Source of the DNA: Phycisphaeraceae bacterium
Lineage (GTDB): Bacteria > Planctomycetota > Phycisphaerae > Phycisphaerales > Phycisphaeraceae
DNA length: 64,000 bases
Direction of reading: 5' to 3'
Assembly: GCA_963674705.1 (NCBI GenBank)
Contig: OY771506.1
Span: 960,001-1,024,000 of the forward strand
Shown here: positions 47,801-63,449 of the stretch, in pieces
Numbering within the stretch: position 1 is the stretch's first letter
How the letters are laid out: every line of letters starts with the position of its first letter
The notes under the pieces: model-generated
What the model saw: the letters and a program-made list of their open reading frames with translations, nothing else
Told to the model about the DNA's origin: nothing
The model's database searches: none
Translations under genes and position numbers: made by a program

Positions 47801-50800
47801 GGCCGTTGGAATCGTCAGCCTCCTGGATGTAGCGGTCGTTGGCCGCGATGTGATCCGGCGAACCGGCTGCGGCGGCTTCTGCCTCAACAAGCGTCTGGTA
47901 GAAGCGTGTGTAGAGGTTGTCATTGTCTGACGTCGGGCCGCTCAGGGCGTAACCAAAGTCCGCCGAGAGGAACGTGACATCCGCGTTATCTGCCAGGTTG
48001 CTCGACCAGGAGATCAGTTCGGGATTGAGCGGATCGTTGTAGTTACCCATCTCAAGCTGCAAGCCGCCGTTGTCGGTCGCGGTTTCACCGAAGCTGTTCG
48101 TGCCGCTGAAGACGATGCCGCTTGTACCAAGCGGTGTGTATCGGCCCCAGGTAGCGATGGAGATGCCGATCCATGGGTTGTTGCTGGTCGTGATATTACT
48201 CAACGATGCACCATTGACATCGGTCATGAAGATGCCTGCGCCACCGTTGTTTTCAGACACAAGGTTGTTCAACGTGATGTTGCTGGCACCGAGGATGTCC
48301 AGGCCCGTACGGTAGCTGTCGCTGATGGTCACGCCATCAAGGACAACGCCGTCGACATCCGCAACCTTCACACCGTAGCGCGGCGTGCTGCTGGCATTGT
48401 TGCCGGTCACGGACAGGCTGCGAAGTTCGGTGTCGTCGGCCGTGAGATAGACGCCGGCATTGTTGTTGCCGGGTTGGCCGGTGTGGTCGATGATCGTCAC
48501 ACCCTGACCCTGACCGATGACCTTCACGCCTTCGGTGCTGATAAGCAGGTCTTCGTTGAACGTGCCGGCTTCAACATTGACGGTGTCCCCTACCGCCGCC
48601 ACGTTGACCGCGTTCTGGATCAGTTCATTACTCAGGCCTGTGCCCGGTGTCGTCACGTACAGATTGTCCGCCACCACGCGGATCAGACCGCTGGCCGCGT
48701 CGTCGGCTGCGTGATACATCTTGTCTTCGATGCGGAAGTTGTCGACCTCATCGTAGCTCGAACCGAGACCGACCAGGTTCATACCCAGGCCGGAAAGGTT
48801 CTCGATGTAATAATCGTCGCCGCCGAAGGTATTGCCCGCGCCGATCGTGATAGCGGTAGCGGTGGATGCCAACTGGATATCAACCAGGTTGTCGTTGGCG
48901 TTGTCGAAGCTGTTGCCGATGATGGTGGCCGAACCACTGACCAGGACGCCGATGTCGAGGTTCTGGAGGGTCACACCACTGACCATCGCCGAGTTACCGT
49001 CAGCGATCTGCACACCGATGCCGGACGCGCCGGTGATGCTGCCGCCGGTGATGTTGGCGGAACCCATGATCCCGCCGAGGTCGTAGGCGACGCCGGAATT
49101 GGTAACGATGTTGCCGTTCATCTCGACCGGCAGTGTGCCGGTGTAATCGATCGGGCTGCCGTAGTAGACATCGAGCCAATCGAAAGCCACATCAGCCTGG
49201 TCAACGGTGTTGTTGTCATAACTGACCGTGCTCGAAGCGCCGGAATGCGAGGTCACGCGGAAGGCTACCTGGGTTCCGGTGTTGCCGGCGTTGCCGCTGA
49301 AGCTGTTGCCCGAGACGGTGATGTTGCTCTGGTGGGCGTGGCCGTTTTCCCAGATGCCGTAGATGTTTTCACCACCACCGTTCATCACAACGATCTGGTT
49401 GCCGCTGATGTTCAAACCGTCGTAGTTCGTCCCGCCGTGCGTATTCGTTTGGATCGCGAACGTAGTCCCGTCACCGCTGCCATCCAACTCAAACAGGTTG
49501 TTGGTAATGGTGATGTTCGTGCCCCTACCGAAGTGAATACCGATGTTCTGGAAGCTGTCGGTCGCGTCGTCAGCCGCCACGCGGATGTGCATGTTATTGA
49601 TCGTCAGGTCGGAATAATCATCACCCGAATAGTAGAAGCCGATCGCGTTGTCGAAGTCGAGGATGCCGAAGTTCTCGAACGTCCAGCCGGTGTTCGTGCC
49701 GTTATCGAAGGCAAGGAACACGCCTTCCAGGTCGAAGCTCGTTATATCGCCCGGGCCCTGGATCGAAATGTTGTCAGCCGTGTTGGCGGTGACGGTCACA
49801 TCATTCTGGCCGTCTCCCAGCAGGATGCCGAAGTCGTCATCGGTCGATGCGACGCCGTCGTTGCCCAGTTCCCAGGATGCCAACGCGTTGGCTTCGTCCC
49901 AGTTAAAGATGCTGTCTGTGCCGTTGGGCAGCAGCATGATGGTGTCGCCCGCGGTAGCGGCTTCGATCGCGTTCTTGATACGGATGTAGTCGTTGTCCGC
50001 AGCCGTCGGCGACAGCGTCGGGGTGACGACGATCAGACCGCCCTGCAACTGGATGCGGCCAAGTGCCCCATCGTCCAACTGATCGGTGATCTTCGCTTCA
50101 GCAGCAGCCAACTGCGCCGGCGTCAGGCTCGCGCCGATCGTGCCATCAACCGTCACTGCCGAAGCATCGACGACAAGGTTATCCAGCGCGCCGTTAAGCA
50201 GCGTGACGTAGTCGCCGCTCTGGCCTGTGAACGACAGGTCATTAAGCGACAGGCCCGTAATCTGTGTACCAGCTCCGTCGATCTGCAAGCCGGTCGTCCC
50301 GCCGCTGATTGTGTTGCCCGCACCCACTGTCAGAACAGGATCAACCGTGGCGTCATCATCGATCATCTGCACGCCGATATCGGCGCCGCTGATCGTGTTA
50401 CCCGTGAGTGTGGCTTCGGAGTTGCCGCCGCTACCGCTGAACGCGACGATTGCAATACCGATGTTACCGCCGGTGATGTCGTTACCGGTCAGATCGGATG
50501 TGCTTTGATCAACAAGAATCCCCTCGTAACGGTTGGCAACCGATGAGCCGAGGATGTTGTTGCTGACCTGGACCGTACCGCCCCAGCTATAGATACCGAT
50601 GTCATTGGCGTCGATCGTGTTACCGTCGATCACCACGCCGCTGCCGGCATCGTAGAGCAGAATGCCGATGGACTGCCAGTCATTGAACAGGTCAGGCCCG
50701 CCGGTGGTGCCGCTGTACATGTGGTCGCTGATCGTGTTGCCGACCACCGTACCCGTCGCGCCGCCGAGCATGACGATGCCGTTCTGCGCGATCACCGTGA

Positions 50801-53800
50801 CATCACCGCTGCCGGTGATCATGTTGCCGCTGATGTCGACTGTCAGGCCGACGCCGCGCAGGTCGATGCCGTTCTTCTGGTAGTCTTCGATCGTGCTGTC
50901 GGTGACGCTGACCGTGTATGGCCCGCCATCATCAACACCGGCGAAGATCGCACGGCCGCGCTGCGTGCCGGCAAGCACGCTGTCGCGCACGCCTGTCACC
51001 GTCACGTTGTCGATCGTGACATTCGCGTTGAGGATGCCGATGCCGTCAAAATCATTGCCCGAAACCACCGCGTTGCCCGCGCCGTTGCCATCCACCGTCA
51101 ATGTCTGGATGGTCACCGTACCGCCGGTCACCGCGACGACAGACTGCTTGGTCTGCCCGCTGTAAACAAAGCTGTTATCCAGTGTCAGCACCGGAGGCGC
51201 CTGGATCACCGTGCCCAGTTCGCTCTCGCCCGTCACGACCAGACCGAAGTCGATGAGCAACTGCTCGCCATATGTGCCGTCATAGATCTTGACTTCACCG
51301 CTGCCGCCATTAACGACCGCGGCAATCGCATCGCTGATCGTGGCGAACTGATCGTAACCATATCCCGTGCCGTCGCCGTGCGAACCACCCGCGCCGTCGG
51401 CATCAACGCCGAGGGCCGTACCCGCCCAATCGTCATCGACATACACGATGGTCGGTGCGGTCAGGACCGGGGCCTGTGAGAACAGGACTTCGGTGTACTG
51501 CGCATCGTCAACGGTGTGATAGACGACGTTTTCAATCAGGACCGAAAGGTTCGAGCCGAAGTCGTTGCCTTGTGCATAGACATCAACATTGCCCGCCGCG
51601 TCTTCGTTGAGGTTTTCAATGGCGTAGTTGCCGGCGAGGCCCGAATAACCGGTCAGCGTATTGCCGCCGGCGCTGGTGCCGAGGCCCGTGTTGCCGCCGC
51701 CGCCCGCATCCACCTGTGCATCGCTGCTAACGCGGATGCCGACCGAGTTGCCCGCCAGGTCCGTACCTTCGACTAACGCGTTGGCGTTATCGACCGAAAG
51801 GCCGATCGTGTTGCTGTTGACGAAGCTGTTTAGCAACGTGAGGTTGCCGGCCGTCTGGTCGATACCGGTTGCCGCCCCGCTGATGGTCACGCCATCAAGC
51901 GTCAGGCCGCTGCCAAGGATCTGCGCGCCGGCTGTTGTCGCGGAAATCGACCCACCGGTGAGCGTCGCTTCACCATTGCCATCAACCTGCAAGCCGATGT
52001 CGTTGCCACTGAGCACAACACCGGTGAGTGACAGCGAGCCGCCGTCCACCAGGATGCCCACATCGTTGCCGGTCAGGCCGGACAGATCATCCAGCGAGGC
52101 GATGGTGACGTCGTAGCCGTTCGTGTCCGCATCGTATTCCGACAGCTTCAAGCCGAGGTCGTTGTTCGTAATCGCGTTATTGCTGAGCGTCGCGCTGATC
52201 TGGCGATCGCTGCTGGTCAAGGCCAGTTTGATACCCGTTTCCAGATCGTTGATGTCGTTATCCGAAATAACCGCGACCGCGTTGCCGTGGTCTTCACCTT
52301 CGGTCAGCAGGATACCCGTGCCGGCCCGGCCGGTGCCTTGGATCGTGTTGCCGACGATCTGCGTCACCTTGCTCAAGTCAGGCGTGTACTGAACGAGGAT
52401 ACCTGTGTTCTGATCGCCGACGGTGAGTTGGTTGTTCTGGATCGTAACTTCGCCCGGGTTCCACCAGACGTTCATGCCGATCACATCGCTGCCGCTTGAG
52501 ATATCGATGATGTTTTCATCGCCCGGGTTCGGCCCGCCGATCATGCTGCCATCCGCGAGATTCACCAGGCTCATGCCGATCCCGTACATCACGTAGCCGG
52601 TGTCCCGGATGTTGGTGATCTGGTTGCCCTGGATCGTCACGAGCGAAGCACCGGCATTGGTTCCGTCATAGAACAGGTTGTTCATCACGATGCCGACCGA
52701 GACATCATCAATGGTGTTGTCCAGAATCGTCGCGCTCGTATCAGCGACAATACCCCACAAGGCGTTGCTGATATCGTTGCCGATGAAGGTGGCCTGGGAA
52801 TAACCACGGATCGCCGCGGCGCTGGCGGTTGCATTGTCGCCGTTGACGTTGCTGATCGTGTTGTAGAGGAACTGCGCTTCGCCGATCGAGATGATGCCGT
52901 CGTTACGCGTCACATCGGTGATCAGGCTGTTTTCAACCACGTGACCGCTCGATGTAGTGCTGCCGATGTAGATACCACGGCGGTAGATGTTCTGAATCGT
53001 CACATCATCGACGTGCAGGTTATCGAAGCTGCCGCCGTCGGCAGTGGTGATACCCATACGGAAGTTGTGATCGTTGGGCGATAGCGCGGCGTTGGCTTCG
53101 CCGTCGATCGTCAGCGTCTGGATCGTGATGTCATCGGCCGCAACAATCAGGCCCTGCTGATACGTGCCGGCAAACCCGCCGTTGGCGTGATCGTCCACCG
53201 CCTTGGGCGCGATGATCACACCGGATCGGCTTTCGCCTTCCAGTGTCAACGACTGGCTGATCGTGGTGTTCGACTCGTTGTACTGGCCGTTGAGTACATG
53301 GACGGTGCCGCTGGCGTCGACCATGTCCACCGCTTCCTGCAGCCGCCCGGCCGTTCCGCTCTGCGCACCGAGTGTCGTCACATGCACCGTACCAAAGTCG
53401 CCTTGGAACCCGGCCGCGAGTACGTCAGTATCGGCGCTGCTGACCAGGAACGGGCTGAAGTCCACCAGGCCCAACGTCTGTGCCGCGACGCCCGCCTGTG
53501 TCATCGTGCCCCAATAGTTGCCGGAGGCATTCACTTTTGTCGCTGAGGAGTTACTGATCGCACGTACCGTGTTGCCCGCCAGGCTGCTGCCGAAGACGGT
53601 CGCCGAACCGGTCGCACCAACCAGCACGCCCGTGGCGTTACCGCTGATAACGCTTTCGCTGATAGCCGCGCTGCCGGCCGAAGCACTGACGCCTGCGGTA
53701 TTCGCATTGATGATCTGGCTGCCCACAACCTGCGCGCTGCCGCCATTGACAATCTCAACACCGAAGATCCCGGCGTTGGTCAGAATCGACGCGTCAACAG

Positions 53801-55940
53801 TTGCCGACCCGCCATCCACACTCACACCGACCAATGGCCCGTCCACGGTCGAGTCGGACAACGTCACATGCCCATCTTCAACCGAAACGCCGCCGGTGAA
53901 CCAGTTAGCAAACGTAAAGCCATCGATCAGTACCGTGCTGGTTGCGCCGGTGATCGTCGCACCGAACACACCGAACAAGGATGTGCCGTCAAGCACCGGA
54001 GCCGAGGTCCCTTCACCTTCCAGCGCATCACCCGGATCACCGATCATGTCAAGCGATTTGTTGATCGCCAAGGCCTCGTTGTACGTACCTGCAAGCACGT
54101 TGATAACCGCGCCGTCGTCCGCCGCATTGATCGCTTCCTGGATCGTGGCAAACGCGTTATACCCGTAGACTCCCGCCGGCCCCGCGCCGTCCGGATCGTC
54201 ACCGAACGCCGTACCCGCCCAGTCGTCATCCACATACAACTCACTGACAGTCGCCGGGACACGGATCAACTCGACATCATTGCCGTCCCCGCCGGTGTAA
54301 TCGATCAGGAAAGTATCACCATTGATCGTAAGCAAAGCGCCTTGCGCCAAGCCTGCAAACGTTCCGGTGATCGCATCAGCGCCGTCGTTATCGATAAGGA
54401 CAAGCGAATCACCAACCGAGGCACTGATCGTGCCGCCCGCGTTGAGCGTCGCGCCGCCAAGATCGACCGTGCCGGCGACGGCATACTGATCGTGTTCAGT
54501 CCCGGCGGCGAGGCCGTTGACTTCCGCATCGAGGATCGAGCCGGCGGTCAGGGTCAGGTTGCCGCTGGCGATGATGCCCGGGCTGTAACCGGCGCTCAAG
54601 GTTGCCCCGGCCACGCTCAGCGTCAACGTGCCGTTCAACGTCAAGTCACCGCCCACCAACAAGGCCTGATTGACATCGACATCTTCGGTAAATGTGCCGG
54701 CAAAGCGCAGCGCCACACCGGGCGCAGACGCGTCGATCGTCGCCTGTACACCGGAGGCGATATAGACGGTGTTCCCGCCTTCAACCGCGACCGCGTTGGT
54801 CGCGAAGATATTAGCGCCGACCACCTCGCCGAGCCCGACCGGATCGGTGGAAATGCCGTTGGCGGTTGAGCCGTTGGCTAGATACATGTAGTTCGTCGTA
54901 GCGGTCTGCCCGGAAGCGTCAAACGTGTTGCCGACGATCACGACATTACTGCCGCGTGCGCGCAGGCTCGAACCATAACGCTGGGTGGTCCCGGCAAAGG
55001 TGTTGCCGGTGATCACCGCGCCGGCGCTGTCGATCGTCACCAGCGTATTGCCCTGCTCGTGTGCAGCCGTAGCGGCGCCGGTGTTGTCCGTCAGGCTCGT
55101 GCCGCCGGCCGTGCCGACAACCTGGTTGTTCGTAAACGTGATATTGCTGGTGTTGCCCCCACCGGTTCCACCGCCCATAGCCACTAACTGACGTGGCACG
55201 TTCGCTAACGAGAACTGAGCGCCAAAACCATCACCTGCTGGGTTAGCGCCGACGAACGTCTGGCCGGAAAAGATGTTGCCATCAATAACGAAGTTGTCAA
55301 TAGTCGCGCCGTACTCTGTCAACAGGCCGTGATCCCCGTTAGCGACGATCTCATTGCCTCGGATCACCGCGCCGCTGTGGCTGCCCTGGAAGTAGACCGC
55401 TGCATTCTCGACGCCCGGCGCACCGTTATCGATCCCAATGATCGTAAAGCCCTGTCCGCCATCGCCGATCTGAACGCCCGTGGTGGCGTTGGTCACCGTT
55501 ACCGTACCGAGATTGCCCAACCCGGATACGCCCTGGATCGTCGTGGAGGTATAGCCGTTTTGAGACAGCAGCGTCAGGTCTTTATCGATCGTGACGTTGC
55601 CGACGAATGTGCCGTCGCCCACCTGGATGATGTCGTCCACCGAGGCAGCATTCACCGCATCCTGAATGACATCAAAGGCATCCGTACCAAAGACCGCAGT
55701 CCCGCCACCGAACTCATCCAGTGTGACGATGTCGCCGGCGTCGAGCGTGCCGGAGCTGTTCACATCGTCATAGATCTGGAAGTCGTCGGCATAGTAAGTA
55801 GCGCCGGACAGAAGCAGCTTGGGTTCCAGCGCTTCAAACGTCGGGCGGATCTGCCGCTCTTGTTCTTGTCTACGCAACCACCGCTGGTACCATTCACGAC
55901 GTTTCGTTCGCAGGACTCGCTTCTTTTGCTTGCGTGACAT
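38883..55940 (-). CDS. Giant (~5685 aa) LEPR-XLL surface protein: about 12 parallel beta-helix modules, PKD-like domains, cohesin-dockerin-cohesin-dockerin, Q/T tail
   Basis: SD-like AGAGAGG 7 nt before ATG 55940; basic leader plus FEALEPKLLLS; repeated IQ.A...A..GD.I.V..GT(Y/F).E heads; WGDG motifs; cohesin-like VPINIDDADGLLGFNIDLAYDTDVL; twin GDLNSDGFVGLDDL and GDPSGDGYVGLTDL loops. Confidence 0.9.
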   Translation of the reverse strand: MSRKQKKRVLRTKRREWYQRWLRRQEQERQIRPTFEALEPKLLLSGATYYADDFQIYDDVNSSGTLDAGDIVTLDEFGGGTAVFGTDAFDVIQDAVNAASVDDIIQVGDGTFVGNVTIDKDLTLLSQNGYTSTTIQGVSGLGNLGTVTVTNATTGVQIGDGGQGFTIIGIDNGAPGVENAAVYFQGSHSGAVIRGNEIVANGDHGLLTEYGATIDNFVIDGNIFSGQTFVGANPAGDGFGAQFSLANVPRQLVAMGGGTGGGNTSNITFTNNQVVGTAGGTSLTDNTGAATAAHEQGNTLVTIDSAGAVITGNTFAGTTQRYGSSLRARGSNVVIVGNTFDASGQTATTNYMYLANGSTANGISTDPVGLGEVVGANIFATNAVAVEGGNTVYIASGVQATIDASAPGVALRFAGTFTEDVDVNQALLVGGDLTLNGTLTLSVAGATLSAGYSPGIIASGNLTLTAGSILDAEVNGLAAGTEHDQYAVAGTVDLGGATLNAGGTISASVGDSLVLIDNDGADAITGTFAGLAQGALLTINGDTFLIDYTGGDGNDVELIRVPATVSELYVDDDWAGTAFGDDPDGAGPAGVYGYNAFATIQEAINAADDGAVINVLAGTYNEALAINKSLDMIGDPGDALEGEGTSAPVLDGTSLFGVFGATITGATSTVLIDGFTFANWFTGGVSVEDGHVTLSDSTVDGPLVGVSVDGGSATVDASILTNAGIFGVEIVNGGSAQVVGSQIINANTAGVSASAGSAAISESVISGNATGVLVGATGSATVFGSSLAGNTVRAISNSSATKVNASGNYWGTMTQAGVAAQTLGLVDFSPFLVSSADTDVLAAGFQGDFGTVHVTTLGAQSGTAGRLQEAVDMVDASGTVHVLNGQYNESNTTISQSLTLEGESRSGVIIAPKAVDDHANGGFAGTYQQGLIVAADDITIQTLTIDGEANAALSPNDHNFRMGITTADGGSFDNLHVDDVTIQNIYRRGIYIGSTTSSGHVVENSLITDVTRNDGIISIGEAQFLYNTISNVNGDNATASAAAIRGYSQATFIGNDISNALWGIVADTSATILDNTIDDVSVGIVMNNLFYDGTNAGASLVTIQGNQITNIRDTGYVMYGIGMSLVNLADGSMIGGPNPGDENIIDISSGSDVIGMNVWWNPGEVTIQNNQLTVGDQNTGILVQYTPDLSKVTQIVGNTIQGTGRAGTGILLTEGEDHGNAVAVISDNDINDLETGIKLALTSSDRQISATLSNNAITNNDLGLKLSEYDADTNGYDVTIASLDDLSGLTGNDVGILVDGGSLSLTGVVLSGNDIGLQVDGNGEATLTGGSISATTAGAQILGSGLTLDGVTISGAATGIDQTAGNLTLLNSFVNSNTIGLSVDNANALVEGTDLAGNSVGIRVSSDAQVDAGGGGNTGLGTSAGGNTLTGYSGLAGNYAIENLNEDAAGNVDVYAQGNDFGSNLSVLIENVVYHTVDDAQYTEVLFSQAPVLTAPTIVYVDDDWAGTALGVDADGAGGSHGDGTGYGYDQFATISDAIAAVVNGGSGEVKIYDGTYGEQLLIDFGLVVTGESELGTVIQAPPVLTLDNSFVYSGQTKQSVVAVTGGTVTIQTLTVDGNGAGNAVVSGNDFDGIGILNANVTIDNVTVTGVRDSVLAGTQRGRAIFAGVDDGGPYTVSVTDSTIEDYQKNGIDLRGVGLTVDISGNMITGSGDVTVIAQNGIVMLGGATGTVVGNTISDHMYSGTTGGPDLFNDWQSIGILLYDAGSGVVIDGNTIDANDIGIYSWGGTVQVSNNILGSSVANRYEGILVDQSTSDLTGNDITGGNIGIAIVAFSGSGGNSEATLTGNTISGADIGVQMIDDDATVDPVLTVGAGNTISGGTTGLQIDGAGTQITGLSLNDLSFTGQSGDYVTLLNGALDNLVVDASAVTVDGTIGASLTPAQLAAAEAKITDQLDDGALGRIQLQGGLIVVTPTLSPTAADNDYIRIKNAIEAATAGDTIMLLPNGTDSIFNWDEANALASWELGNDGVASTDDDFGILLGDGQNDVTVTANTADNISIQGPGDITSFDLEGVFLAFDNGTNTGWTFENFGILDFDNAIGFYYSGDDYSDLTINNMHIRVAADDATDSFQNIGIHFGRGTNITITNNLFELDGSGDGTTFAIQTNTHGGTNYDGLNISGNQIVVMNGGGENIYGIWENGHAHQSNITVSGNSFSGNAGNTGTQVAFRVTSHSGASSTVSYDNNTVDQADVAFDWLDVYYGSPIDYTGTLPVEMNGNIVTNSGVAYDLGGIMGSANITGGSITGASGIGVQIADGNSAMVSGVTLQNLDIGVLVSGSATIIGNSFDNANDNLVDIQLASTATAITIGAGNTFGGDDYYIENLSGLGMNLVGLGSSYDEVDNFRIEDKMYHAADDAASGLIRVVADNLYVTTPGTGLSNELIQNAVNVAAVGDTVNVEAGTFNEDLLISTEGVKVIGQGQGVTIIDHTGQPGNNNAGVYLTADDTELRSLSVTGNNASSTPRYGVKVADVDGVVLDGVTISDSYRTGLDILGASNITLNNLVSENNGGAGIFMTDVNGASLSNITTSNNPWIGISIATWGRYTPLGTSGIVFSGTNSFGETATDNGGLQLEMGNYNDPLNPELISWSSNLADNADVTFLSADFGYALSGPTSDNDNLYTRFYQTLVEAEAAAAGSPDHIAANDRYIQEADDSNGLPNSGPTQLYVFDNTGNTMSIQAAVDAAVGGDTINVAAGTFEGTVDANKSVTIDGQGLSSIINAGGVASHGVLVHADDLVLSNLRITNANDAVRFDTAVDGVQLLHVQADNAARGVSVQSSLTDLMFDDVTLTGNGTGMRVATLGAIVGFDLLNSAFDGNDYGMTVYASGSITNNEANFTDILIQNTSFSNNLEKGFYTEKLDNATLDNVTVDSSGTGGAATYDSGIDINLKYGTYTNIDILGGAITNSGTGDAVNGTGLTIKARGTGNDPSYASNPATLTDVVIDGTTISGNQIGIRIGEPGKANTGPSGVLIDADVSDNVDVGIAIVGGQVAVQNTDLTGNQVGVLVDGGATADLGGGSLASVGNNDLTGYSGVGGNYAIEDLNLAAQPDVYADNNSFGSTVAGVIESIVFDDTDDATRSMVIATNPQGAGVTSPIYVDDDWAGTVVGVDPDGVGGVSAIYGIDAFANINDALDAVSAGGEIIVFAGTYNERFDLDQSVNLHSDAYAGTSTSGRTAGDASEAIIDLQGQEGAIGEGIRITSSDVTFAGFEIVGGSATNYGIYISGGGNNLDNIAIENNFIHGMALPNPVVSGSELTYGILGDSNGVSTWGELSNLSIVGNEIYDLGSVGTASGYGINLYDVNGATITGNALHDLADGLNDVGTGVSVTFAGSGANPLAGVSSNVTIANDSYANMSVGVRLLADSGSSVTQDVADFSNVELYVMNAGDLPRASVNLTGQHVWTNNLAVSAAIQGYLTAAGITEPTAGYTGSIQTAIDQSNEDATVTLTAGTFAENVTVDKDINLIGQGSSTLWTPSGSGNIVTIAGSGFGDDQTVTIQDIDFDGLNGTANAGVYVGSAADFANLSITNGDFTGFNYYAIAVFGDAGTGISVQDVDLTNLTFSNNGIAGSGGTADIQFFEYNGDATLTGLVHVGNRNEGAGSGARSAIQFRGVGAGDGTGVLAGGNIVLDDIEVTGTYRNQFIGIQRYTDVSNFSFNDVVLGGGASDLVGGWGAVLRFDAVGDLASKGTATPASVDLGNTYFRGIVSSISGLVSDIEFAPDNNFAWLRADGTDTQWDTTTGTQVAASSLTLDELFEVEDRILHYVEPDHPSHLNSFHGFVEVVDGTAYITETFSSLINRGIEVVDEGGTVFIDAGTYIEDVNVNRYVNLDGAGSGSNPAVDTIITPASSTYGLQISASGLDASNRLTVQDLHVTGSASHGVVAYGQDHIEILNVESSGNDLDGFHLSDMDDLVITDSTASNNGAVNPPTVGHGFDLNGVRDAVLTNLTAVDNYSAGIGISARASTTGASSNIDIIGGTFSDGSSTRPEGSNGISLYVDDAHGASSISDVTIGGTISISDFLFGGITLFNAGVTSSIDNIQIGQTIGDSVTLSNNVIGLMMFGNVTNVDADADFVRGAASTAGASALGLDETGTLSPDMISVAGSTFTGFDNTAAAISLAAVNPSPAPAYFVSSNTIDVTGATFDGVNPAALSTGDPAFWTIEDQIVHAIDVDGAALIDFDPAGNHYLTTSSFVSGINTNAMVQRAVDVATAGDTIYIQDGTYVEGSQVVIDKNLTIDGQSRVGTILTPGYDTSTSGNARGWWLVNAGIDLDVSSLTYDGTGNSVWQAVRHLGTGSFDDVAFSTIQYSASGSPYAGTAIAAFGGVGAVDVTNSYFDTIGRIGVQYFGAGTTGTFSGNTYTGKGVGDFLDYAVEVSAGAIANINNNIITDNLGVAASDGSTSAGVLVTTYFAPGTEAHLSGNVISNSTSGVAAGYDGTDTSIVTLTGDTLDGNEYGVSINGASVSINAGTTIQNGTTGVDVDSNGSVTIDGATISGNAIGVDVGSTGSASITNSDITGTAGSTGVLVSAGGSASIVNNPTTITGHEVGIDVAGGTALIENNDLNGNTIGVLIQNDGIADLGDNTGSDITGLGTGSGSNGSSAGLNDFSGYTTAATASSGAIVNLNSDSGLVGTQGLPPDVPAFGNTWDDASPSGIENVVYHDSDDNNLGFVDFADLLSLSVSLDVATIGEGSSVQLLGTFSNSPQDHTLTVNWGDGNTDIIAVPAGVFDLSTLSITHTYDDNGPVPSGSPYVYAISVTLEEDAGPGVLTDNSLTATVNNVAPTVALSGAATTDEADVYTLSIGAVTDPGDDTVIQYRVIWGDGNFDVYTSAQIALMSGLVSHTYQDGPGGVSQISVELTDEDGIHANAGILPLSVNNLDPYGTFDNGGPVNAGTAGFVTWYAQGDPSPVDASSLVYDYDFGDDGTFEIIGSSLNFATVPGLYLTTPGTYDVRGRIRDKDGGSYEEVTTITVNATTFRVLNFTTNASGFEAVFSGDLDMGVFNLYDSYDAPVELADLYVVDTSGEVAGSAIFNPSSNKLTWIKTGGVLEAGNYTVFMVSGLNAMKEAGTGALLDGNSDGTPGDNYVMNFTVTASTDRVLSLPDFARGPGQTVDVPATGLGLPVTLDDATGVNAVDFDVIFDATLLNITGVSLGASLPGDWSVTYNLVSPGHLKVTTSGITTLSGSDVQIVTLTANVPSSAEFGGAQVIRLQSVAVNGGFINSVGDRALHKAAYLGDVDGDFFFSGLDASLISGVVVDLVTGFDAFDKTDPVILANSTGTGTLNGLDASYVAQKSVALPRPEIPDLPAVAPAGVPGEDPVLTVSSGVVANIGTTVSVPINIDDADGLLGFNIDLAYDTDVLDITNGDVSLGSLLSGAGGWNVVANVDDLAGTIKLAFYRADGPMPAGGGEVAILDFTVLPGAASIGTTNVTADGPTDLGGKTYNYIAGSIDVQPISGDLNSDGFVGLDDLDIVLNNWNQYVTAGDWLSGDPSGDGYVGLTDLDIVLNNWNAGTPPVAQAVSVSEDEELASNSSQQSESQSQTQTQTQSQAATGQSQQQQQQTQQQTQQQTQTRKPAQQTQQQQLQQQRQTQQQQKQTQQQTTTVTGWRQAPVRSAFGQSDEEKFEPTLGLWESEVA

Positions 55941-56796
55941 GAGCATGCCTCTCTTTGGCTGAATCTTCTGGGCGTTTACCGAAGACCTTAGTATTTCGTT
56001 ACCGTTGTTTACACATAGACACACGCAAACGCTCACGGCCTTTCTTCCGGCCATGAACATCTGCATCAAATAAACAATGAGAGATGACTTTGAGCGCGCA
56101 GAGAAACCTGGAGCTATCTAACTATATGTAGATAACTCTCTGGATTTGCATGTGACAGCATCCCTCGATTTTATCCTCCAACCACTCCTCCACTATGTGA
56201 GACGTTAATGTGGGTGCCGAATAGGCAAGAACTGATTGCCCGGTTATTCCCCCATGTTGTCGTAGTACACTTTGTAAGGAGTTTTTATAGCGTAAAGCAA
56301 ATGTTGCTGTCAATTAATTTCTGGCTATTAATCTTAATAATTTTTGATGTTTGTGTGTTAATAGCTTAGCGCCGAAGGTTTAAGACAATAAAAACCCAAG
56401 TATTATGCGAATACATACAACCGGCTCATTTTGCCTTGCTTTTTTAGAACGATACAAGATCACCGTTATGCTCGTGATAGGTAATGCCACGGCTTGGTAA
56501 ACCCAAAATGTTAAAATAGGGGAACGGCTTTTTACTTATTATTCAGTTTTATGACACAGTATGACGCGCCGCCATCCTGTGCAGTTCATTACCCGATGGC
56601 GCTACTGCTCAAACGATATTTATGTGTCCAGTCTCACGAATCACCCACCTACCCACCGCATAGATGATCCGGGCCCACCATCAGCCACTATAAATTGTGA
56701 TTAGCTGGAGAATGACTGAACATTTCTTTCAATAGCGATTGAATTAGCCGTACCGGCCAAGCATACGCATCATTCATGTCGTTAAATCAAACCGTC

Positions 56797-57573
56797 TCAA
56801 TCTGTTACAGTCGTATACACACCTGCGTATTGTTGAACGATGTTTGACCACGTTACCGCCAACTCATCGACCAGCTTATCAAGCGCTTCGGACTCGGCAT
56901 TACGCCGGGATTCGTCGACCTTGGCTTCATTGTTCCACGAGCTGGTGTCCTGCTCACTTCGGGTGGTAACCTCGGCGACACCATAGATATAGCCGTTTCG
57001 TACATCCAGCAGCGCCGCGGAAGCAGTGCAGGTGATGCGTACTTTCTTATGGCCGCCGAATCCCAGCGTGATCATGTCCAGGGGCGTTGCGTTGTCCTCA
57101 TGGTAGAAGTGTGTGTCGAATGTGTAGATTAAAAGTATCTGCGTGTGCAGTTTCGCGGCAGCCTGACGGAGTTCCATGTCAGAATTCAGTTGCGATGGCA
57201 GCAACAGGCGGTTGACCATCGCCACACCACGGACCATCGGCATGGATGCAAGACGGTTAAGTTGATCTTCGGTTTCCACCTCACGCATGGTGACTACGCT
57301 GTAGGCCCCTCGGCCGTAGGCATAACCATGAGCGTTGCGGTAATCCGTGCTCTGCACATGCGCAAGACAAATCCCCGCGGGAAACGAAACCAGGGGCTTG
57401 CGGGCCAGTTCGTGTTGGATCTGCTCATCTGTTAATTGGTTGCGCTGGTCAGCGGACACCACGCCAAACGCTTCCATAGGAGCGCCCGGCCCGGGGACCG
57501 TATACCTCATACAGCCTGGCAGAACAGAAAAAGTCAGTGCGAACAACAGCAGTACGGCATGATACGCGCGCAT
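56797..57573 (-). CDS. Hypothetical lipoprotein
   Basis: Lipobox LPGC; SD GAGGG; motifs LRQAAAKLH and AALLDVRNGYIYG. Confidence 0.75.
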   Translation of the reverse strand: MRAYHAVLLLFALTFSVLPGCMRYTVPGPGAPMEAFGVVSADQRNQLTDEQIQHELARKPLVSFPAGICLAHVQSTDYRNAHGYAYGRGAYSVVTMREVETEDQLNRLASMPMVRGVAMVNRLLLPSQLNSDMELRQAAAKLHTQILLIYTFDTHFYHEDNATPLDMITLGFGGHKKVRITCTASAALLDVRNGYIYGVAEVTTRSEQDTSSWNNEAKVDESRRNAESEALDKLVDELAVTWSNIVQQYAGVYTTVTD

Positions 57574-57615
57574 GATAGGCCCTCATGTATTATGGTTTGG
57601 TCAGGAACTGGATGT

Positions 57616-59818
57616 CTATTCTTGCACCGTCGTGTCGTACAGGACGCCGTCCGGCACGGGGATGGGCACGTTCACGGTCACGCCCTCGTTGCCTGCCGTA
57701 CGCCCGCCGGCGTCGACCGCGACAAATGAGGTGTAAGCACTCATCAGGTTGTAATCCAACGCCAGGCGCGTAATCTGCCCGGCCAGCTCGCCATGCGGAT
57801 CGCCTTCATAGGCCTGCCGGTCAGATAGATCAGCGATACAAGCTCGGGCCCAGACGCCGGCCAAGGCATCGCGATCCTTGCTTTCACCTTCACGACTCAC
57901 ATGAACGTCGACCAGCACGGGTTCGCCACCCGCTTTGCCGGCAATCGCGATGTCATTCGGCATCTCACCCGTAAACCTGCCGGTAATCACGATCGGCTTG
58001 CCAACGAACAGGTCGCTTGCATTGCTTGGATAAAGTGCCGCCACCCTCGCCCCACGCCAATCGATCCGCACATCAGTCATCGCGGGTCGGCTTGCTCGTT
58101 CCAGGAAACGGCCCATCACATCAGCGCCATCATCATGAAGCCCCAGATACGCGCTCGTACCTCGGCCGATACTTGCCATACGCTCTAAGAGATAGCGGTT
58201 CGGGGAAGAACCCACGCCGAAGCTGAAGATACGCGCTGCACCAACATGCTGTTTTACTTCATGGAGAATTTCTGCTTCGTTGCCGATGTAGCCGTCGGTC
58301 ATGAAACACACAACGCGCAGTTTTTCAGGATCGTGCGGAAAGTCCAGCGCCGCCCTGATCCCCTCGACCATCATCGTCCCGCCAGTGCCTTGGAGCTGTT
58401 GCACATACTTCAAACCGCGCTTTTTATTCTCAATTGTCGCGGGCAGGGGCGACTTGCCGAGCGCCGAGGCATCATTGGAAAAGCGGATGATCTGGAAGCT
58501 GTCCTTCGGCCCAAGTTCATTGAGCGCAAATCGAACCGCGTCTTTCGCCTGGTCAATAGGTTTGCCGTTCATACTGCCCGAACAATCCAGCACGAACACC
58601 ATCTCCATCGGATGCTTCGGCAAGGATTCCAACTCGGCCGGAGGCACAAGCAATAACGAGAAGTAACCACTCTTTTCATCCTGATACGTCAACAGCCCCG
58701 AGCGCACCGCATTCGATGCCACCTTGATCCGCAGCACGAAGTCCTTGTTCGGGATCGTGTCCTTCCGGCGAAAGCTCAGACGTGGTAGCCTCGTGGCCTC
58801 ATCCGTCGCGCATCGCATCTACGATCGCGTGACTGTGACAGACGATCTGTTCAATCGGCACGCCCGCGTCGATATCGACCGAGTCAGAGCGATGTCGTGG
58901 CCGCTCCGCTCGTTCGGGCGCAGGTATTGAACTTCTGTCGGCTGCCCGGTCACTCCCGTGCCCGACCACGTGCGGAGACCGCGCCGATGCCTTCGGTTTG
59001 TCTCCGGGCGGGTTGAAACCGTGGGCCGACGACCATGGGGAACACGAAGCTCCAGGTAGCCGTCGCTGTAAGCGAGCGTGTTGAAAATACCGGATATCGA
59101 CGTCGATACTGCTTGCCGGGTTCGATATTAGCGACCCTCTGGGTGAAGACGTTCGGTCGCTCCTGCTGTCATTAACGCGGCCCGGTAGCCCTGGGCGAGT
59201 GCTTCTTTGTACAGCCGTTCGGCCTCGGCGCGCTCGCGGATAATGCCGCGGATTCGCCGATCGCCGATCGTCATCACAAATTCGTTCACCGCCGCATCCT
59301 GTGGCAGCGGGAAGACATAGACCGCCTCGATCTTCGTGTCGTAAGGGTTCTGAAACTGTTGTGTACACCCGCACACGCTGGAGACGTAACCGGTGATGTT
59401 GGCCTTTCACGTCGGTGTGCGTCTAGCGGCAGCGGGATGCATGCTTCGATCTCTTCTGAATCCGGTACCGGGGATGGGCAGACAACCGATCATCGCGCCG
59501 GAGCCGGGGGTTTCATCGTCCGTGGCAGGCCGATGAACCGTTTCACTTGTTGGTCAGTGACTGCGGCGATTCACGACTGGATGTAGACGCGTTCCTCTTC
59601 CAGATCGACCGGGGCTTGCGTTAAGTCAAAGCTGGGGGCCCGTGTAAGGCGCATGCGGCGGCACCTGGCAACCGACCCGCCGGAGGATTGCCACTGATCG
59701 CTGAGCCGGTCACCGGCTGCATTGGCATGTCTCACACCAAGAGCATCAATGGCATGCAAGACAGACGGCGATCACGGACAAACAAGTCAATGCCCACTTC
59801 ACTGCATACTCTTCTCAT
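57616..59818 (-). pseudogene. VIT plus vWA domain protein with multiple frameshifts in the 5' part (pseudogene or local sequence errors)
   Basis: VIT fragments QQFQNPYDTKIEAVYVFPLP...EAERLY and IDVDIRY in different frames; intact vWA MIDAS DCSGS and TDG; C-terminal LMSAYTSFVAVD. Confidence 0.8.
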
Positions 59819-59819
59819 G

Positions 59820-60278
59820 CCTTTGGCTTCCTGGAGTTCTGCAGCGGAGGCATTTACGATCCTGCTCGCCTTGCGGAGTCCGCAGCGGCGGTGAGGTTGA
59901 TAGCTGATATTGCGGTTGAACGTTACGCCGATCACCTGTAAGGTGAATGGTGGCGACGCGTGTCCTGCCTGCTGGTAGCTGCGATGCGTCAGATGTGTTG
60001 AACGCCGCGATGATGACACGCTCCCGCTGGATCGCTTCGGGATCGTAGTAAGGCGGTTCGCTGAATGCATCATGTTCCCCGCCCTCGATGCCGACGATTT
60101 TCACTTCACCCTCTGTTGCCTTGAACTGAAGCTGATATGCGGCCAACGGCATATCACCCGAGTCCAGGTAAATATCAACCGTGGTAAAACGTGTCGCGCT
60201 ACGGTCGGTCACGTCGGATTCCGCCACCGCACCGAACACCACCGCCAACGACATGAACCATGCAAACCACACACTCAT
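59820..60278 (-). CDS. Secreted cohesin-like protein; 3' end frameshifted near 59940 and uncertain
   Basis: Signal peptide; TVDIYLDSGDMPLAAYQLQF...VKIVGIEGG...IIAAF...G...VATIHL strand pattern; ATGA-coupled to the upstream gene. Confidence 0.55.
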
Positions 60279-60769
60279 GACGACGCCCCCCCATCCCGCT
60301 CATCAGCTTTCCCGGAAACGCTCACAGCCAAACCTGCCACGACCGCTACATCATCACGATCGATCTTTCCATCTGCGTTGAAGTCCCAGCCGGGCGGTGC
60401 GGACTGCCCCGCATCGATCACGCGCGCTATCGCAAACGCATCCAGGATGTCCACCGTGCCGTTTTGATCCGCATCGCCCCGCACCACGGGCTTCGGCTGC
60501 ACCGTTTTCGGGCTCATCCCCGGCCAGGCAATCCAGACACCGAGCCCGATCATCGCCGCCGCCGCGATCGGTCCGACATATCGCAGCCACAACCGACGTG
60601 TAACCGCAGGCTCCTGCCCAAAGTACTCGCTCGCAGCGTCCAGCACCGCCCGGTCCACATCCGGCGGAACAAACACCCGCCCGTCTTGCATCGCCGACAA
60701 ACGCTCCGCCAATTCGTCAGGCAGATGCAGGTCATCAGGCTCGGATTGTCGTGTATCCCGTGTGGACAT
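60275..60769 (-). CDS. Putative anti-sigma factor with an extracytoplasmic dockerin domain
   Basis: GGAG SD and ATG 60769; about 60-aa cytoplasmic part, one TM helix, Ca-loop pair GDADQNGTVDILD and DFNADGKIDRDD. Confidence 0.75.
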   Translation of the reverse strand: MSTRDTRQSEPDDLHLPDELAERLSAMQDGRVFVPPDVDRAVLDAASEYFGQEPAVTRRLWLRYVGPIAAAAMIGLGVWIAWPGMSPKTVQPKPVVRGDADQNGTVDILDAFAIARVIDAGQSAPPGWDFNADGKIDRDDVAVVAGLAVSVSGKADERDGGASS

Positions 60770-60812
60770 AATCGGTCTCCAACAGGTAAAGGGCGCAAAG
60801 CCCATGAAAGGT

Positions 60813-61376
60813 TCAATCTTCAAAATATTTTTTTGTCACCGGGTCCTGCCGCAGCGTGCGGATCGCGTGATGTATCCGGGATTTGACGGTTCCGACAGGG
60901 ATATCGAGCGCCAAAGCAACCTCTTCGATGCTCAACCCGTCCACGAAGCGCAATAACAACACCTCCCGCTGCTGCGCGGGCAGGCGGGCCAGTACATGCT
61001 CGATCTCGTCGCTATCCCCAGGCCCAGCCATATCGGGCGCAGGCAAGTCCGCTAAAACTTCATCTGAACCGGCAAACCGCACCGACTTCCGCCTCGCCGC
61101 CATCGCTGTGTGTTTGATCACCGGATAGAGAAACGTCGTGAGCTTCGCGACCAATACAAACCCCGGAAACTTGCTCAGCAGGTAGATGAACACCTCCTGC
61201 ATGACATCGAGCGCGGCGTCCCGGTCCTGCGTGAATCGGTAGGCGGTATTAATCACCCAATCCCGGTACCGGTAGTACAACGCCTCAAACGCCCGCGCGC
61301 CGGCCGGTCCGCCACGGTTGGCGGCATCCACCAGCTCGCTGTCAGTTCGTTGATCGCTGCCCGGTTTATGTTGCAC
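60813..61376 (-). CDS. ECF RNA polymerase sigma factor
   Basis: Region 2 AFEALY..Y...DVMQEVF; region 4 LPAQQREVLLLRF.DGLSIEEVA.ALDIPVGTVKSRIHHA. Confidence 0.95.
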   Translation of the reverse strand: MQHKPGSDQRTDSELVDAANRGGPAGARAFEALYYRYRDWVINTAYRFTQDRDAALDVMQEVFIYLLSKFPGFVLVAKLTTFLYPVIKHTAMAARRKSVRFAGSDEVLADLPAPDMAGPGDSDEIEHVLARLPAQQREVLLLRFVDGLSIEEVALALDIPVGTVKSRIHHAIRTLRQDPVTKKYFED

Positions 61377-61435
61377 ACGATCAGCTTACGCCGGATCACA
61401 TCACCACCACAAGCCCGGATACATCAAGATGCCGA

Positions 61436-62542
61436 CTAGCCCATCTGCCCGACCAGCTTATCCCACACCTCGTCTACCGTGATCTTCGCGATAAGGGTTG
61501 GGTCGTCGTTGTGCTTGCGGTAGTTCGCTTCATAGAGATGTGCATCCGTGGGTCGGATCACGCTCGAATCTCGGCGGTAGGGCCCGACCAGCGCCGGGTC
61601 CGTCGGGCCGAACAGCGAGACCACCGGCCGGTCAAAACCCACTGCGATATGCAACGGCGCCGAGTCATTACAAATAAGCACGCGCGATTCACTGAGTAAC
61701 GCCATCATCCGCCCGACCGTCGTTTCAGGGAACACCACGCGCTCACGCAGATCGCCGCCGGCCGCACCATCGCCCATCAATGTTTCGTACATCGCAAGCA
61801 CCTGGTTGCGCTCATCCGGTGAAGCGACCAGAACCAACTTATCCCCCGCCTTGCCCGACTCGATCAACCGACGCGCGATCTGCCCGTACCGATCGATCGG
61901 CCAGCATTTGCATCCCCATCTCGCTGTCGGCGCAATACACGCATAGCCCCCGTCACCTATGCCGTGCTCCTCTTTGAACTGCTTAAGCCAGGTTTTGTCT
62001 TCATCGCCAAGGTACAGGCGCATGTCATGAACCGCTTCAAGCCCATCGGCTTCGAGCAAACCGAGCATACGGTCTACCGTATGCAGTTTTGCATCCACAT
62101 GATGACGCACGTTGTAACCCAGCCAGCCAAGCTCCCGAGCGTTGGCAAACCCGACACGCCGTTTCGCTTTGGTCAGCTTCGTAAACAACCCGGAACGGAA
62201 CAGCCCCTGCATGTCGTACACCGCGTCGTATTTTTTCTCGCGCAACAATCTGCCGAACTGAATACCTGCTCGCGTTGCTTTTGGGCTCAGTCCGAACCCG
62301 GATAATGCCTTGCGGTCAAATTCAACAACACCATCGAGCATCGGGTGATGCTTCACCGCCGGGGCAAACACCTTGGCAACCAGCCAATCGATCTTGGCAT
62401 CCGGATAAGCCTTGCGCAGCGTCGCCAACACCGGTACCGTCCGCGACACATCCCCCAACGCCGTCGGGCGGATGATCAGCACACGCTGCGGGGCTGTTTG
62501 CCCCCCCCTCTCGGGCTGAGATGGATCAACAGAATCGACCAT
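61436..62542 (-). CDS. GT9 glycosyltransferase (LPS heptosyltransferase WaaC/WaaF-like)
   Basis: IRPTALGDV, DMQGLFRS, KCWP, CNDSAPLHIA, LFGPT. Confidence 0.9.
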   Translation of the reverse strand: MVDSVDPSQPERGGQTAPQRVLIIRPTALGDVSRTVPVLATLRKAYPDAKIDWLVAKVFAPAVKHHPMLDGVVEFDRKALSGFGLSPKATRAGIQFGRLLREKKYDAVYDMQGLFRSGLFTKLTKAKRRVGFANARELGWLGYNVRHHVDAKLHTVDRMLGLLEADGLEAVHDMRLYLGDEDKTWLKQFKEEHGIGDGGYACIAPTARWGCKCWPIDRYGQIARRLIESGKAGDKLVLVASPDERNQVLAMYETLMGDGAAGGDLRERVVFPETTVGRMMALLSESRVLICNDSAPLHIAVGFDRPVVSLFGPTDPALVGPYRRDSSVIRPTDAHLYEANYRKHNDDPTLIAKITVDEVWDKLVGQMG

Positions 62543-62690: not shown

Positions 62691-63449
62691 ATGCCGACCA
62701 CCGCTCTGATCTCCGATATCCATGGCAACCTCACCGCCCTCAAGGCAGTGATGGCCGATATCGACCGCCGCGAGATCAAGCGGATCGTCTGCCTCGGCGA
62801 CATCATCGGCTACGGCCCGAACCCCGTCGAATGCCTCGATGTCGTCATGGAACGCTGCGAATTCGCGCTGATGGGCAACCACGACTTTGCCGTGCTGTTT
62901 GAACCCACCAGCTTCAATACCAGCGCCGAGCAGGCCGCGTTCTGGACACGCAGACAGTTCGAGCTCGAGCCCGACCCGGTCAAACAGAAAAAACGCTGGG
63001 AATTCCTGGGTAATTTACTGATCCGCAATAAAGTCGACGGCGCGTTGTGGGTTCACGCCTCACCACGCCGACCGATTAACGAATACATCTTCCCCGACGA
63101 TGTGATGACAAGCCCCGGCAAGATGCAGGCCATCTTCGACCGCACAGAAGGCCGATGCTTCTGCGGCCACACCCACGTGCCAGGCGTCTTCACCGACGAA
63201 CCCGACTTCTATCCCCCCGGAGACCTTGGCGGCAAGCACACCTTCTCCGAACGCGAAAAAGTCATCGTCAATCCCGGCAGCGTCGGCCAACCCCGAGACC
63301 GCGACCCCCGCGCCAGCTACGCCATCCTCGACGACGACTGCGTCGAATTCATCCGCATTGAATATGACGTCCAGACCGTCGTCGACCAGATCACCGAAAT
63401 CTACGACCTCAACGACTTCCTCGGCCACCGCCTCCTCGAAGGCCGCTGA
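62691..63449 (+). CDS. Calcineurin-like metallophosphoesterase
   Basis: SDIHGN, LGDIIGYG, GNHD, GHTH, NPGSVGQPRD. Confidence 0.93.
   Translation: MPTTALISDIHGNLTALKAVMADIDRREIKRIVCLGDIIGYGPNPVECLDVVMERCEFALMGNHDFAVLFEPTSFNTSAEQAAFWTRRQFELEPDPVKQKKRWEFLGNLLIRNKVDGALWVHASPRRPINEYIFPDDVMTSPGKMQAIFDRTEGRCFCGHTHVPGVFTDEPDFYPPGDLGGKHTFSEREKVIVNPGSVGQPRDRDPRASYAILDDDCVEFIRIEYDVQTVVDQITEIYDLNDFLGHRLLEGR

Follow-up and report, generated by a model that had tools for sequence, protein, structure and literature searches.

Cohesin-dockerin pairs are very tight, Ca2+-dependent connectors that assemble extracellular enzyme complexes. What, then, might a dockerin be doing on a small membrane protein whose gene directly follows that of an extracytoplasmic function (ECF) sigma factor? 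The question is raised by a locus of a Phycisphaeraceae bacterium (GenBank assembly GCA_963674705.1, contig OY771506.1), which we analysed within a stretch of 64,000 nucleotides, hereafter the window, that corresponds to bases 960001-1024000 of the single-contig 5.54-Mb genome. The list of open reading frames (ORFs) places on the minus strand, co-oriented, an ECF sigma factor, a dockerin-bearing membrane protein, a secreted cohesin-like protein, pieces of a VIT-vWA protein and a lipoprotein. We rate this locus as a sigma/anti-sigma system of the ECF kind whose sensor pair is undescribed, and hypothesize by analogy, with somewhat more confidence than doubt, that it works as an RseA/RseB-like switch on cohesin-dockerin contact, with the membrane protein as the likely anti-sigma. 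This reading is based on domain architecture, the fold of a predicted model, gene-order conservation and natural gene fusions, from which we infer the binding and regulatory steps. The first-pass annotation had described five co-oriented genes, of which the sigma, dockerin, cohesin-like and lipoprotein ORFs stand as read, while no single VIT-vWA ORF is present in the assembly. The features of the locus, all on the minus strand, are:

60813 to 61376, minus strand: ECF-type sigma factor of 187 residues with a GTG start (ORF, Pfam, NCBIfam).
60275 to 60769, minus strand: anti-sigma-like single-pass membrane protein of 164 residues (ORF, ortholog alignment).
60524 to 60592, minus strand: transmembrane helix of that protein, residues ~60-82 (hydrophobicity, ortholog alignment).
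60317 to 60478, minus strand: its dockerin module, residues 98-151, with two Ca-binding loops and a helix after each (Pfam Dockerin_1).
59799 to 60278, minus strand: secreted single-domain cohesin-fold protein, 159 residues as assembled (ORF, ortholog model).
57616 to 59818, minus strand: VIT-vWA lipoprotein gene, broken at 58769-59818 in the assembly (ORF pieces, Pfam, orthologs).
56797 to 57573, minus strand: accessory lipoprotein of 258 residues without a Pfam family (ORF, predicted model).

The first gene product matches the Pfam families Sigma70_r2 (PF04542; E-value 1.1e-10), Sigma70_r4_2 (PF08281; E-value 3.1e-18) and Sigma70_ECF (PF07638), and the NCBIfam model TIGR02937 (sigma70-ECF) with 80 bits against a cut-off of 42.9; no NCBIfam equivalog is matched at its cut-off. 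Having only the sigma-2 and sigma-4 regions and matching the ECF superfamily model, the protein can be assigned by its sequence to the ECF (group 4) sigma factors. It is 93% identical in the closest ortholog genome (G004). The gene that follows has an ORF open over 60275-60823, in which the ATG at 60769 matches the start of the family, where the Met is nearly invariant. From this start, the protein has a cytoplasmic N-terminus of ~59 residues, a transmembrane helix, a linker of ~16 residues and a two-loop dockerin that reaches almost to the C-terminus. The translation contains one hydrophobic stretch, which aligns with the hydrophobic block of all displayed orthologs. The short cytoplasmic part, single helix and sole external dockerin that had been read from the sequence are borne out by Pfam, with Dockerin_1 (PF00404) matched at 27.1 bits against a cut-off of 22.9. 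The same family is found at an E-value of 0.01 or better in 81 of 81 orthologs, again as the only external domain, and the family profile matches dockerins of solved structure (PDB identifiers 5lxv_B, E-value 9e-7; 2y3n_B; 1daq_A).

Both 12-residue Ca loops, as first quoted, are present in the translation, with Asp or Asn at positions 1, 3, 5, 9 and 12 of each. Almost every ortholog (79-81 of 80-81) retains D99, D110, D129, D133 and D140, and conservation extends to the first dockerin helix (I108 in 78, L109 in 75, A111 in 81, F112 in 75, A115 in 80 and R116 in 70 of 81 orthologs), while the equivalent positions of repeat 2 vary in the same alignment. This conservation of helix 1 goes far beyond the needs of Ca binding. 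In clostridial dockerins, cohesin recognition resides in positions 10, 11, 17 and 18 of each repeat; on that numbering, repeat 1 alone looks like a fixed binding face. The cytoplasmic part also has a conserved motif, VPPxVDRAxL (P35 in 79/80 and D39 in 78/80 sequences of the 81-ortholog alignment). The C-terminal tail of the protein is variable in the family and, at ~60300, after the second helix, the window has 9 bases fewer than G004, in frame.

The membrane protein lies directly after the ECF sigma gene, and a single-pass membrane protein at position +1 is used as an anti-sigma criterion in PMC7826278. From this position of the gene, the protein is likely to function as an anti-sigma factor.

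The dockerin gene stop and the start of the next gene overlap as ATGA at 60275-60278, a detail of the first-pass annotation that direct reading of the sequence bears out. The product of this third gene belongs to a family of 2195 members at an E-value of 0.001 or better, which are ~150 residues long, occur mostly in Planctomycetota and Verrucomicrobiota, are without names in the database and share an invariant loop motif, GxEGGxH...PxYD. In the 159-residue ORF of the window, residues 1-111 are clean and the ~45 that follow are garbled by insertions, the orthologs being ~150 residues long; a signal-like helix is present at the N-terminus of both the window ORF and the model described here. We modelled the intact G004 ortholog, 73% identical to the window protein, with AlphaFold2 on an alignment of 48 sequences. 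The model (predicted local distance difference test score, pLDDT, 88.2; predicted template modelling score 0.76) has the signal-like helix followed by a beta sandwich. All 24 matches listed by Foldseek against the PDB at an E-value of 0.001 or better are cohesins, a non-cellulosomal Archaeoglobus cohesin among them, the best being 3ul4_A (E-value 6.6e-5; root mean square deviation, RMSD, 3.1 Å over 117 columns; template modelling score 0.62 by target length). VIA-align, a search independent of Foldseek, run against 48,161 representative chains, also places cohesins in all of its top 20 ranks (Z 10.2 to 7.2, 109-121 residues aligned); the highest-ranked chain of any other kind, at rank 21, is a pilin domain (Z 7.2). 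The earlier impression that the downstream protein resembles a cohesin is thus upheld by the fold of the ortholog model in both searches. The two best PDB matches by sequence are also cohesins, at a non-significant E-value of ~0.6, and 14% of the members of a neighbouring ESM-Atlas cluster are annotated as Cohesin, a weak lead. Since the fold matches cohesins and the sequence relation is undetectable, the third protein is, on its predicted model, a member of a divergent cohesin-fold family and not of Pfam Cohesin.

The gene order was surveyed at two depths. Six of 41 genomes of the order, the genome under study included, carry the cohesin-like gene, and the order sigma factor, dockerin protein, cohesin-like protein and intact VIT-vWA protein is kept in 5/5 of the other carriers, which belong to three families of the order. 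A wider survey with one genome per species found at least 255 relatives, of which 80 loci were fetched; 61 are labelled Planctomycetota, 14 Verrucomicrobiota, and a few others are probably mis-binned. Using hidden Markov models built from six close orthologs, we find the arrangement, whole or in part, in 80/80 loci. The dockerin protein gene is directly upstream of the cohesin-like gene in 78/80, the exceptions being a contig edge and a fusion, the VIT-vWA gene is downstream in 73/80 (77 have room for it), and 63/80 have a same-strand ECF sigma gene upstream, with a further 2 that have one on the opposite strand (73 have room). All four genes occur together in 57/80 loci. The arrangement is far beyond chance, and gene order, which was to be checked in other genomes, is conserved, being kept in 73-78 of 80 loci with the sigma gene adjacent in 63. 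Beyond the four genes, no flanking gene is common to more than 8 of 70 loci.

Natural fusions also exist. In three proteins (P0279, which is that of locus L076, P0280 and P0281) the dockerin protein and the cohesin-like domain form a single chain, in the order N-terminus, one transmembrane helix, dockerin, a linker of ~20-50 residues and a cohesin-like domain without a signal peptide of its own. One of these genes is placed as follows:

L076, 5302 to 6372, plus strand: natural fusion gene, dockerin protein and cohesin-fold domain in one chain.

The fusions fall into two lineages that are 35-39% identical to each other. Together with the nearly universal adjacency of the two genes, the overlap of their stop and start codons and the conservation of dockerin helix 1, they indirectly support a joint action of the dockerin protein and the cohesin-fold protein. 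The fusions are also possible ready-made constructs for structural work.

We hypothesize that these components plausibly work as follows. The cytoplasmic N-terminus of ~59 residues would hold the sigma factor at the membrane. The dockerin, ~16 residues outside the membrane, would use its strongly conserved first helix for Ca2+-dependent binding of the cohesin-fold protein, and the VIT-vWA lipoprotein, whose metal-ion-dependent adhesion site (MIDAS)-type motif is intact, may join the complex or supply the input by binding a ligand or some part of the envelope. If the periplasmic partner were lost, the anti-sigma would become open to proteolysis or change its conformation, freeing the sigma factor, which would then transcribe its regulon, its own operon included. 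A Ca2+ signal, or pull transmitted through the vWA protein, is speculation. In a bolder and, in our view, unlikely version, the dockerin of the inner membrane, the unattached cohesin and a VIT-vWA lipoprotein that sits in the outer membrane and binds via a metal-dependent site would form a trans-periplasmic tether, the rupture of which by envelope damage, loss of Ca2+ or mechanical separation of the membranes would release the ECF sigma factor. If true, this tether would make the cohesin-dockerin pair a sensor of envelope integrity, the first signalling role for the pair.

Several results weigh against the switch that we favor. Searches of Pfam, NCBIfam and PDB sequences gave no match of the cytoplasmic N-terminus to a known anti-sigma domain; specifically, neither the zf-HC2/RskA type of class I nor the CnrY-like type of class II is found among its Pfam, NCBIfam and PDB profile matches. 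The structural case is made on the G004 ortholog and not on the garbled ORF of the window. Pfam Cohesin (PF00963) is not matched at an E-value of 0.1 or better by the window ORF or by the family members P0001 and P0112 (the latter a homolog from Pedosphaera parvula), and hhalign comparison of the cohesin-like family with the two canonical cohesins of the genome is not significant (E-value ~0.5). Upstream of the sigma genes, a crude count of paired k-mers gave no usable motif, the best pair occurring in at most 10 of 61 loci, and the same promoter search with refined starts gave GAAC ... ACTT in 8 of 62 loci, against a maximum of 5-7 in shuffled sequences. Finally, among the 73 loci with room, eight lack an upstream ECF sigma gene on either strand; inspection of these eight and of L066 shows a ~645-residue membrane protein, an RpoD-like gene or some other gene as the neighbor.

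The loci without a sigma gene bring up a different explanation, namely that the dockerin protein, the cohesin-fold protein and the VIT-vWA protein form a structural or adhesive envelope complex, which the ECF sigma factor merely transcribes and in which there is no anti-sigma. Besides these loci and the unmatched N-terminus, the tighter linkage of the trio (78 and 73 of 80 loci against 63 for the sigma gene) agrees with such a complex, as do the adhesion- or matrix-type roles of VIT-vWA proteins elsewhere, to which homology with PARP4 and ITIH proteins points. We nevertheless hold it to be rather improbable: the N-terminus is conserved in 81 orthologs, those of the sigma-less loci included, and would be needless in a pure anchor, and an anti-sigma is typically recognized as a single-pass membrane protein encoded at +1 of an ECF sigma gene. 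As a separate observation, in four loci (L022, L034, L039 and L077) the ~645-residue protein, which has an N-terminal membrane helix, replaces the ECF sigma factor before the dockerin gene, and may represent a different type of regulator linked to the trio.

A further explanation concerns the partner of the dockerin. A giant ORF of 5728 residues (38883-56069, minus strand) begins 728 bases beyond the lipoprotein gene and contains the only two Pfam Cohesin matches of the 5.5-Mb genome, at 39450-39815 and 40143-40430; its translation has dockerin-like repeats at the C-terminus. An hmmscan of the last 1305 residues of the giant protein at an E-value of 0.01 or better returned NosD only, unlike the profile search of the genome that gave the two Cohesin matches. 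The dockerin of the membrane protein, which is the second-best of 46 Dockerin_1 matches in the genome, could thus dock onto these canonical cohesins, leaving the small cohesin-fold protein to pair otherwise, for example with the VIT-vWA protein; 46 such matches do imply that some cohesin-dockerin system exists in this organism. However, the giant ORF occupies the same place, at 94% identity, in G004 only and is absent from the fetched flanks of G010, G003, G029 and G033; the lack of any widely shared flank beyond the four genes speaks in the same direction, and in the fusions the domain joined to the dockerin protein is the small cohesin-fold one itself. We regard docking onto the giant protein as distinctly improbable.

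The fourth gene of the proposed switch has to be reconstructed from pieces. Open in the assembly are a vWA ORF of 400 residues at 57616-58818, which matches VWA_3, VWA and VWA_2 of Pfam and has a DxSxS MIDAS-type motif, and a fragment of 82 residues at 59128-59376, which matches VIT. In a three-frame translation, the VIT-vWA frame hops from ~59818 down to 58818. The intact orthologs are 703-726 residues long (703 in G004), match VIT (E-value 1.1e-34) and VWA_3 in Pfam, and have a lipobox signal at the start and no other hydrophobic segment. They score 500.8 bits with the NCBIfam model TIGR03788 (marine sortase target), which is below its cut-off of 551.65, and are homologous to the VIT-vWA core of PARP4 (E-value 7.9e-35) and ITIH4. 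The disruption lies in a patch of poor sequence:

58769 to 59943, strand not applicable: poor-sequence patch, with ~34 small insertions against both the ortholog and short-read contigs (alignment).

Alignment with G004 shows additional letters at 34 places of the segment 59943-58769 (17 single, 7 double) and one letter missing at a single place, while the flanks of the patch align at ~90% identity and without indels. Past residue ~111, the cohesin-like ORF is scrambled by the patch as well. A sequencing run from another study (X3) has contigs that span 58740-59861 as five pieces, each of which has 1-11 substitutions and is shorter than the window by exactly its gap count (7, 14, 5, 11 and 11); among the differences listed, 12 are letters left out and none is a letter put in, and 23 further differences lie beyond those listed. 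Given these contigs without the extra letters and the insertion-only profile, the frameshifts are most likely errors of assembly or polishing.

Contigs of two other runs (X1 and X2) match 57600-58757 exactly and differ at 4 positions over 59944-60560, and within the patch they have a shorter version, 83% identical, with 32 differences in 189 bases. Runs X4 and X5 reach too small a share of the patch to add to the comparison. The patch coincides with a strain-variable stretch, 58757-59944, of which X3 has the variant of the window and X1/X2 a diverged one. In this stretch lie the last part of the cohesin-like gene and, with VIT included, the N-terminal third of the VIT-vWA gene, and it may be a recombining or diversifying cassette. 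That the frameshifts are real and the system is decaying in this strain is very improbable, since, against the generally high sequence quality suggested by the single 5.54-Mb contig and the open 5728-residue ORF beside the patch, and against the failure of the exactly flank-matching X1 and X2 contigs to confirm it, 34 insertions and 1 deletion in 1.2 kb make an error profile unlike gene decay, the X3 contigs have nearly the same sequence without the extra letters, and the diverged, shorter X1/X2 version suggests a strain-variable stretch that was badly assembled. In an annotation of the genome, this erroneous 1.2-kb patch would otherwise pass as pseudogenes.

The lipoprotein, which the first-pass annotation had counted as a member of the operon, is adjacent in the window but lies outside the conserved core. 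It follows the module in the three other carriers of the same genus and adjoins it in 7/80 loci, twice between the cohesin-like and VIT-vWA genes, and is therefore an occasional, lineage-specific accessory partner and not a core component. Its Cys21 is invariant in 55 relatives, and the family has 583 representative clusters at an E-value of 0.001 or better. In a Pfam scan of the ORFs of the locus, this protein and the cohesin-like one were without a match. Its predicted model (pLDDT 87.5) has an alpha/beta fold of the kind seen in LptE, PelC and PqiC, with a long helix at the C-terminus, the best VIA-align matches being lipoproteins associated with the outer membrane, namely the DUF330 protein 2iqi_A (Z 9.0), HpaA, PelC and LptE, with middling Z of 8-9.

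On the other side of the locus, upstream of the sigma gene, 61436-62542 encodes a family 9, heptosyltransferase-like glycosyltransferase (Pfam, E-value 1.1e-40), which adjoins the sigma gene within the genus only, and 62691-63449 on the plus strand encodes a calcineurin-like phosphoesterase (Pfam). Directly before the sigma start, at 61377-61420 of the window, a block of ~25 bases with GCGTAAGCTG is identical in four genomes of the genus (that of the window, G004, G010 and G003), among which the intergenic sequence around it varies. The block could serve as a promoter -10 element, as a leader or for ribosome binding.

If the switch operates as proposed, an ECF sigma system senses through a cohesin-dockerin pair, and does so in at least 255 species-level genomes of the collection scanned; the cohesin-like family occurs mostly in Planctomycetota and Verrucomicrobiota, phyla whose envelope biology and signalling are poorly understood. 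Confirmation of binding would establish a sensor domain of a new type for anti-sigma factors, a divergent cohesin family that is new and lies outside Pfam, and a bacterial function for VIT-vWA proteins, and would provide synthetic biology with a compact orthogonal protein-protein switch. The literature that we searched contains no description of a signalling role of a cohesin-dockerin pair across a membrane, and, with the supplement of PMC7826278 covered in part, no dockerin-bearing anti-sigma-like protein and no such four-gene unit. In the part of that supplement searched, Dockerin occurs for ECF217s1 only, in connection with a kinase, and VIT is absent. PMC6461901 describes a hypothetical 'planctosome' that would degrade peptides in Phycisphaerae.

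The proposed pair resembles the type I pairs of cellulosomes (PDB identifiers 1ohz, 3ul4 and 6kgc) in that the dockerin passes the Pfam threshold and its profile matches solved dockerins, and in that the model of the partner superposes on solved cohesins with a Z of ~10 and an RMSD of ~3 Å over ~117 residues. Unlike in cellulosomes, there are no enzymes or scaffoldins at this locus, and the proteins are periplasmic ones of a diderm. The cohesin stands alone as a single domain, is not matched by Pfam Cohesin and has its own GxEGGxH...PxYD motif, and only the first dockerin helix is strongly conserved, in contrast to the dockerins of cellulosomes.

RpoE-RseA-RseB of E. coli and AlgU-MucA-MucB of Pseudomonas each consist of an ECF sigma factor, a single-pass anti-sigma and a periplasmic protein that binds the outer domain of the latter. 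The locus studied here has the same plan, with co-oriented, coupled genes for a sigma factor, then a membrane protein, then a secreted protein. There is, however, no sequence or fold relation to RseA/RseB or MucA/MucB, the outer domain here being a dockerin and the partner a cohesin-fold protein; RseB/MucB homology is not detected in Pfam or NCBIfam, so that the cohesin-fold protein would be analogous in function only. The cytoplasmic part is also shorter than that of RseA or MucA and without an anti-sigma family match, and the VIT-vWA lipoprotein is an added fixed member.

Two other comparisons bear on the sensor and on the vWA protein. SigI-RsgI of Clostridium thermocellum likewise combines an alternative sigma factor with a membrane anti-sigma and is linked to the cellulosome (PMC6582324, PMC10328401). 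RsgI differs in that it senses polysaccharide via carbohydrate-binding modules, regulates cellulosome genes and is not known to carry a dockerin, and SigI is not an ECF sigma factor. In ECF226 and ECF289 (Casas-Pastor et al. 2021, PMC7826278), a vWA domain likewise belongs to the regulatory partner of an ECF system; there it is fused to the anti-sigma together with DUF3520, whereas here the vWA domain is found in a VIT-vWA lipoprotein of its own and the anti-sigma-like protein has a dockerin instead.

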